Positions 4,207 through 4,767 of a stretch of DNA of 9,822 nt are shown piece after piece (position 1 is the first letter of the stretch; each line of letters begins with the position of its first letter). The notes beneath the pieces were generated by a model, which had not been told where the DNA came from, searched no databases, and was given only the letters and a program-made list of their open reading frames with translations. Position numbers and translations under genes: made by a program. This DNA comes from a virus. Its lineage: Duplodnaviria; Heunggongvirae; Uroviricota; Caudoviricetes. The DNA is taken from IMG/VR virus record IMGVR_UViG_2541047932_000007, positions 1 through 9,822 of that record; one strand, written 5' to 3'.

Positions 4207-4586
4207 CCGCTTTCCTCATTCTGGTTATTCACCACCAGTCGGGGAGGTGGTGGCACCGCAAAACGGTTAGCCGCTTTTTTCGCGGCATCACCTTTTGCCG
4301 ATTTTTTACCGGCATCGCCTTTTTTATGGTGTGTGAACTGCGCCAGTCGCCAGGCCGCATCCAGTGCCAGTTTCGGGTCAATTATCAGGTTTTCCACCAG
4401 GATCTGCCCCATAGCTTTCACCGGATCGGGAAGACCATCCTCCATATATTCAATACCATGAGATATCACCGCGGGCGGAGGCATCTCCGGATTGTTTTCG
4501 TCCGGCTGTGGTATTGCAGCCACCTCACGGCGACGGGGGTTTATCCTCCTGCTCTGATTTTTTCTGCCGGTAAACAGGAACCTCAT
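4203..4586 (-). CDS. 127-aa ORF overlapping the 3' end of terS; likely the C-terminal part of a frame-split small terminase, or an independent packaging-associated protein
   Basis: ORF track 4203..4586, ATG at 4584-4586 with GGTGGAGG just upstream. Its stop overlaps the terL start (ATGA), implying translational coupling into terL. Lys/Ala-rich low-complexity tail (KKGDAGKKSAKGDAAKKAA). Shares 4525-4586 with the terS N-terminal ORF in another frame. Confidence 0.5.
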   Translation of the reverse strand: MRFLFTGRKNQSRRINPRRREVAAIPQPDENNPEMPPPAVISHGIEYMEDGLPDPVKAMGQILVENLIIDPKLALDAAWRLAQFTHHKKGDAGKKSAKGDAAKKAANRFAVPPPPRLVVNNQNEESG

Positions 4587-4767
4587 CCACCTCCACCGTT
4601 TCGCACTGTTTACGGGCTATAAACGCGAGCACCTCCGGATCTTTTGCCAGCTGCGAGCCTTTAACCCTGGCGGTCTTCGCCGAATAACCGGCGGCAATGG
4701 CTGACGCTGTTTTGTTTTTCCCGGACATGAGCGCCAGCGCAAATTTTCGTTTTTGCGTTGTCAGCAC
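4525..4767 (-). CDS. terS: Terminase small subunit, N-terminal HTH portion (Terminase_2-like motif)
   Basis: ORF track 4525..4767, GTG start at 4765-4767 preceded by GGAGGAGG. Contains the small-terminase HTH signature ASAIAAGYSAKTARVKGSQL. At 80 aa it is too short for a complete TerS; see the overlapping 127-aa ORF. Confidence 0.7.
   Translation of the reverse strand: MLTTQKRKFALALMSGKNKTASAIAAGYSAKTARVKGSQLAKDPEVLAFIARKQCETVEVDEVPVYRQKKSEQEDKPPSP

Follow-up and report, generated by a model that had tools for sequence, protein, structure and literature searches.

The small terminase gene (terS) of a lambdoid prophage of Escherichia coli UMEA 3292-1 has probably become a pseudogene by an ordinary, though rare, frameshift mutation. 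As placed by alignment with intact homologues, the lesion is a 1-bp insertion in a run of four cytosines (C4), which in this strain reads C5 (positions 4535–4539, minus strand). Mutations of this kind are already known. The window, i.e. the whole stretch of DNA that was analysed (9,822 nt), exactly fills the interval between two N gaps of scaffold KE702284.1 (assembly GCA_000461135.1) and represents the late region of a Stx-phage-like prophage. Genes for a DUF6645 protein, a holin, a DUF1327 protein, a lysozyme, Rz/Rz1, an HNH endonuclease, TerS, TerL and a prohead protease–major capsid fusion follow one another on its minus strand. HNH endonucleases are the usual partners of HK97-type terminases. 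The Rz/Rz1-type arrangement (6280–6858 and 6369–6554, minus strand) comprises a 61-aa lipoprotein-like ORF that lies within the Phage_lysis (Rz) gene in a different frame, which resembles the embedding of Rz1 in Rz of lambda. An Rfam search of the whole window yielded no matches.

Inspection of the sequence and of the ORF list revealed that a GTG at position 4767 opens an ORF of 80 aa with its stop at 4525, the last three residues of which (PSP) are out of frame. Following a TAG (4619–4617), a second frame, shifted by +1 against the first, is open from 4616 and stops at 4203–4205; an ATG at 4586 defines within it an ORF of 127 aa, which overlaps the 80-aa ORF by 62 nt. The authentic coding part of the +1 frame extends from approximately 4534 to 4203 (RRREVAAIPQ...NEESG, followed by the stop codon). 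The extent of the second frame, its 62-nt overlap and its ATGA junction with terL had all been described in a first-pass annotation of this DNA and were seen in the sequence as reported. The same annotation placed a GGAGG motif 2 nt upstream of the ATG of the downstream ORF; both the motif and the ATG at 4586 are there, but the distance between them is 3 nt, and every intact gene has the motif as part of its normal coding sequence (V-E-V-D-E). Any deletion of 1 nt inside the overlap fuses the two frames into a product of 187 aa. The depositors of the E. coli UMEA 3292-1 sequence annotated two "hypothetical proteins", ERB35484.1 (80 aa) and ERB35483.1 (127 aa). The 3' part of terS also contains an imperfect 27-bp tandem repeat (4270–4323, minus strand), encoding GDAGKKSAK/GDAAKKAAN within a Lys-rich C-terminal tail, and this repeat is found in intact orthologues too. 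The coordinates of the main features are collected in Table 1.

Table 1. Features of the split terS locus and its neighbours (window coordinates)
Feature	Position	Strand	Remarks
terS 5' fragment	4525..4767	-	GTG start, 80 aa; matches Pfam PF03592 and PHROG 641; deposited as ERB35484.1
C5 run, site of the lesion as read from the comparison	4535..4539	- (G5 on +)	C4 in intact orthologues (alignment, regex, indel list)
A6 run, codons AAA AAA (KK)	4558..4563	-	unchanged in intact genes
+1 frame with terS 3' part	4203..4616	-	matches PHROG 641; equals the C-terminus of WP_000958398.1; deposited as ERB35483.1
terS/terL stop/start overlap, ATGA	4203..4206	-	4-nt overlap also annotated in orthologues
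terS ribosome-binding site, GGGAGGAGG	4770..4778	-	precedes the GTG start; conserved in the orthologue alignment
terL (large terminase), 560 aa	2524..4206	-	Pfam TerL_ATPase and TerL_nuclease
HNH endonuclease, upstream of terS	5056..5421	-	Pfam HNH; same annotation in orthologues

Profile searches supported the view that the 80-aa and 127-aa ORFs derive from one small-terminase gene split over two overlapping frames, as had been proposed in the first-pass annotation; the single ORFs of the orthologues (see below) bear this out as well. Residues 2–58 of the 80-aa ORF matched the Pfam family Terminase_2 (PF03592) with 38.4 bits against a cut-off of 26.1, and the match ended at position 57 of the 141 positions of the profile, which agrees with the earlier description of a terS frame that carries the N-terminal HTH and stops after 80 aa. 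In the comparison with PHROG 641 (terminase small subunit, 162 profile positions) the 80-aa ORF covered positions 2–79 (E = 1.4e-33) and residues 16–123 of the 127-aa ORF covered positions 66–162 (E = 1.9e-32); an intact orthologue matched positions 2–162 in a single stretch (E = 4.9e-68). The match of the 127-aa ORF starts at residue 16, which corresponds to the C run and not to the A run (residues 9–10), and its residues 1–15, including those encoded from the ATG, were without any match in the PHROG profile search. When searched alone, as the first-pass annotation had advised, this ORF was recognised by PHROGs only, with no match in Pfam or NCBIfam. The locus thus combines an N-terminal HTH scoring above the family cut-off, a colinear C-terminal part of the profile and the expected position directly upstream of terL with the ATGA overlap, but not the single uninterrupted ORF of the family. 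Since the ORF is broken by a +1 frame change at 4535–4539, the gene would be classified as a frameshifted allele (pseudogene) of the small terminase family rather than as an intact member.

The site of the frame change was located by aligning the window with four annotated orthologues, each of which contains a single 564-nt (187-aa) terS overlapping terL. Only one gap distinguished the window from the four orthologues, and it was situated in the C run (AAACCCCCGTCG, with C5 at 4535–4539, versus AAACCCCGTCG, with C4). The A6 run was invariant in this alignment, and it was also A6 in 99 of the 99 scored IMG/VR copies with an intact terS context. In the intact reading (...Q K K S E Q E D K P R R R E V A A I P...) the A6 run forms two Lys codons, so the authentic frame runs straight through it. 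In the window the frame is lost after codon 77 (Pro), the C4-to-C5 insertion lying about 20 nt downstream of A6. It had been suggested earlier that removal of one A from the A6 run would join the frames into a product of about 183 aa. The notion that a single-base deletion fuses the frames was correct, but the A6 run was rejected as the lesion, given its invariance in intact genes and the sole gap in the C run, and the fused product has 187 aa.

With one C removed, the window gene encodes exactly WP_000958398.1 (187 aa), which at least 997 contigs carry; an indel in a mononucleotide run is all that separates the gene from this widespread intact allele. This protein is encoded by lambdoid and Stx-converting prophages of E. 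coli, e.g. that of strain E2863, and its relatives occur in phage YYZ-2008, Stx2 phage 1717 and Stx1a/Stx2c-converting phages. The WP_000958398.1 locus and the window share the GTG start, the ribosome-binding site, the ATGA overlap and the neighbouring genes (HNH endonuclease upstream; terL and the protease-capsid fusion downstream), and the gene sequences are identical except for the one nucleotide that turns C4 into C5 and yields the 80-aa and 127-aa ORFs.

Database searches revealed that the intact form is very common. A 701-nt query across the locus found matches at 3,099 places in 1,253 of 5,426 complete E. coli genomes (median of 2 related copies per genome, up to 8), and almost all of the listed matches spanned 700 nt and were annotated as terminase small subunit followed by terminase large subunit. 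The same 700-nt pattern was observed in 94 phage records, including the Stx phages YYZ-2008 and 1717. The C4 pattern was present in at least 120 stretches of IMG/VR, where 101 of the 108 complete ORFs had exactly 187 aa. A few of the terS ORFs in these loci (L007–L126) had other lengths (186, 178, 179, 138 and 236 aa), and one locus (L072) contained the C4 pattern twice, 147 nt apart. Apart from these few length variants, the orthologues examined (E. coli genomes, Stx phages and IMG/VR contigs) are single ORFs of 564 nt, which is the outcome of the alignment to intact homologues that the first-pass annotation had recommended.

The C5 pattern was detected neither in IMG/VR viral contigs nor in GTDB species-representative genomes, and it occurred once in the metagenome collection (contig QZMB01012136.1, assembly GCA_003604815.1). 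With an 81-nt probe centred on the C-run site, 1,160 complete E. coli genomes yielded matches at 2,134 places, but no identical one (the best reached 80/81 over 80 nt). The only carriers of the C5 allele are thus scaffold KE702284.1 of E. coli UMEA 3292-1 and contig QZMB01012136.1, and the 80-aa product is recorded in its exact form from just two contigs.

Such rarity raises the question of whether the extra C is real. If it were a homopolymer miscall in a draft assembly, the genome would truly contain C4 and an intact terS, and several observations point in this direction: intact copies number in the thousands and C5 contigs only 2, the sequence comes from a draft scaffold that contains N gaps and in which a gap flank is duplicated, and the remainder of the gene equals the common intact allele, so that the mutation must have arisen very recently if it is not an error. 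The second carrier argues against a miscall. QZMB01012136.1 (1,067 nt) comes from an independent metagenome assembly and has the same C5, although 5 SNPs, and no gaps, separate it from the window. Among 108 full-length comparators the two sequences are mutual nearest neighbours (5 mismatches), whereas the next-best comparators differ from the window by 8–10 mismatches plus the gap. The same rare indel in two data sets, on the closest backgrounds, is what inheritance would predict and a random miscall would not. In addition, no other single-base frameshift is present in the genes of the window. We therefore regard a sequencing or assembly error as unlikely. The comparison of the two assemblies favours, with good confidence, a real, inherited 1-bp insertion. 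Of the alternatives listed in the first-pass annotation, the genuine inactivating mutation in a decaying prophage is accordingly preferred to the homopolymer error, since the insertion recurs in a second assembly that is not identical to the first.

The duplicated gap flank deserves a separate remark. Positions 1–95 of the window (95 nt, plus-strand coordinates) are repeated beyond a gap of 10 N (871–945 and 10768–10777 of locus L005), as a result of gap-flank duplication in the assembly. This probably explains the annotation of the portal gene in two parts, of 103 aa and 382 aa, and the split of this gene looks like an artefact and not like a second frameshift.

A further possibility is that the C5 allele is read through by a programmed or otherwise exploited +1 ribosomal frameshift. 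Slippage at CCC-C (AAA CCC CCG to AAA CCC-C CGT) would then generate full-length TerS in addition to an HTH-only product of 80 aa. The local sequence lends this idea some appeal: a +1 slip of tRNA-Pro on CCC-C, followed by CGT CGC CGT GAG, would restore exactly the wild-type ...DKPRRRE..., an AGGAGG ends 5 nt upstream of CCC, and a moderately stable RNA structure is predicted to start just after the C run (4455–4534, minus strand; -31.6 kcal/mol, z = -2.27). Motifs of the type CC[C/U]-[C/U], to which AAA-CCC-CCG of the window conforms, are described as particularly prone to +1 slippage in E. coli, reaching about 1% at most when placed at the second codon, with typical non-programmed rates far lower (PMC4519876).

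Other observations speak against it. The orthologues have C4 and need no frameshift, so neither the site nor the need for it is conserved (no C5 in IMG/VR, in GTDB or at any of the 2,134 E. coli places); a conserved programmed +1 frameshift, which had also been put forward earlier, was rejected for this reason. Intact genes have the AGGAGG and the downstream sequence too, simply as part of their coding sequence, and the predicted fold, whose z-score is marginal (5 of 200 shuffles folded equally well or better), was dismissed as a stimulator because the same sequence is common to intact genes. The codon in the A site of the 0 frame is CCG and not a stop; CCG is a common and not a rare Pro codon in E. 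coli. In the programmed site of prfB the spacing of the SD-like element is 3 nt, unlike the 5 nt found here. The window site differs from that of prfB in lacking conservation and, it seems, also a stop or hungry codon in the 0-frame A site and a correctly spaced stimulator. A programmed or exploited frameshift is, on this evidence, very improbable.

Nevertheless, +1 slippage is known to occur at CCC-C (PMC4519876), and the C5 allele may therefore not be completely null, and spontaneous +1 slippage could at most yield trace amounts of full-length TerS. The non-conserved need, the sense CCG codon in the A site, the AGGAGG and downstream coding sequence shared with intact genes and the marginal fold all speak for an error-level leak of this kind and not for a programmed event. 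We attach only slight credence to a stronger version, according to which C5 is a leaky inherited variant that provides low-level wild-type TerS while an abundant HTH-only fragment of 80 aa competes for the packaging-recognition site. If that version were true, packaging would be damped for the prophage itself or for closely related co-resident prophages.

Least credible, to the point of being practically negligible, is an arrangement of two separate genes, one for an HTH protein of 80 aa and one for a protein of 127 aa starting from the ATG at 4586: the preceding GGAGG and the two hypothetical proteins of the depositors would suit it, but one ORF spans both parts in the orthologues, the two ORFs correspond to successive segments of a single terS profile (PHROG 641), residues 1–15 of the downstream ORF match nothing, and the GGAGG-ATG stretch, with only 3 nt between its elements, is in-frame coding sequence in intact genes. 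The two-gene arrangement was rejected on account of the single-ORF orthologues and the one shared profile, which also disposes of the two genuinely separate proteins considered in the first-pass annotation; a conserved two-ORF overlap in intact phages, which that annotation had named as the observation that would establish two genes, was not found among the orthologues.

The terL gene contains a perfect in-frame tandem duplication of 21 bp (ACCCATCGGGTGACGGACACC twice; 3692–3747, minus strand), which adds THRVTDT to the TerL ATPase domain, so that the protein has 560 aa as compared with 553 aa in orthologues. The exact 560-aa TerL is on record on one contig only. This unique duplication is consistent with a prophage that accumulates lesions and that selection does not fully maintain any more. 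The other genes of the window are all full length, however, which indicates no general decay and counts against a decaying prophage. In E. coli E2863, the closest complete-genome relative, in which terS is intact, the neighbouring HNH endonuclease gene is annotated as an incomplete pseudogene (locus L001, 2304–2788), so the lesions of the packaging module vary from one prophage of this family to another.

As to the functional consequence, a normal terS of the lambdoid, Stx-phage-like type (564 nt, 187 aa) would have gained one base in its C4 run, and translation from the GTG at 4767 would then leave the authentic frame after Pro77 and terminate at 4525. The resulting fragment of 80 aa would keep only the N-terminal HTH DNA-binding domain, and the remaining 110 codons would lie in the +1 frame, still ending in the ATGA overlap with terL. 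In Terminase_2 proteins, as exemplified by SF6 gp1, the oligomerisation core and the TerL-interacting tail lie beyond the HTH. The window terS shares an N-terminal HTH with SF6 gp1 (3ZQP, 4ZC3) and with the DNA-binding domain of SPP1 G1P (2CMP). In a search of PDB sequences with the intact orthologue only weak HTH matches were obtained (residues 10–53, E = 0.2–0.85), and beyond the HTH no sequence similarity to SF6 gp1 or SPP1 G1P was detectable, so a role can be assigned to the C-terminal part only by analogy. By this analogy, the missing 110 residues should hold the oligomerisation core and the TerL-interacting tail.

The truncated protein should consequently be non-functional, and the C5 allele should abolish the recognition and cutting of phage DNA for packaging. 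The UMEA 3292-1 prophage probably cannot package its DNA; being unable to start packaging, it would be defective or decaying. For annotation, ERB35484.1 and ERB35483.1 are best regarded as products of one small-terminase gene that a frameshift has cut into two halves, and the finding has little import beyond that. It also illustrates that a frameshift does not necessarily sit in the most conspicuous homopolymer of an overlap of reading frames, here A6; in this case it was placed by comparison with orthologues in the shorter C run.
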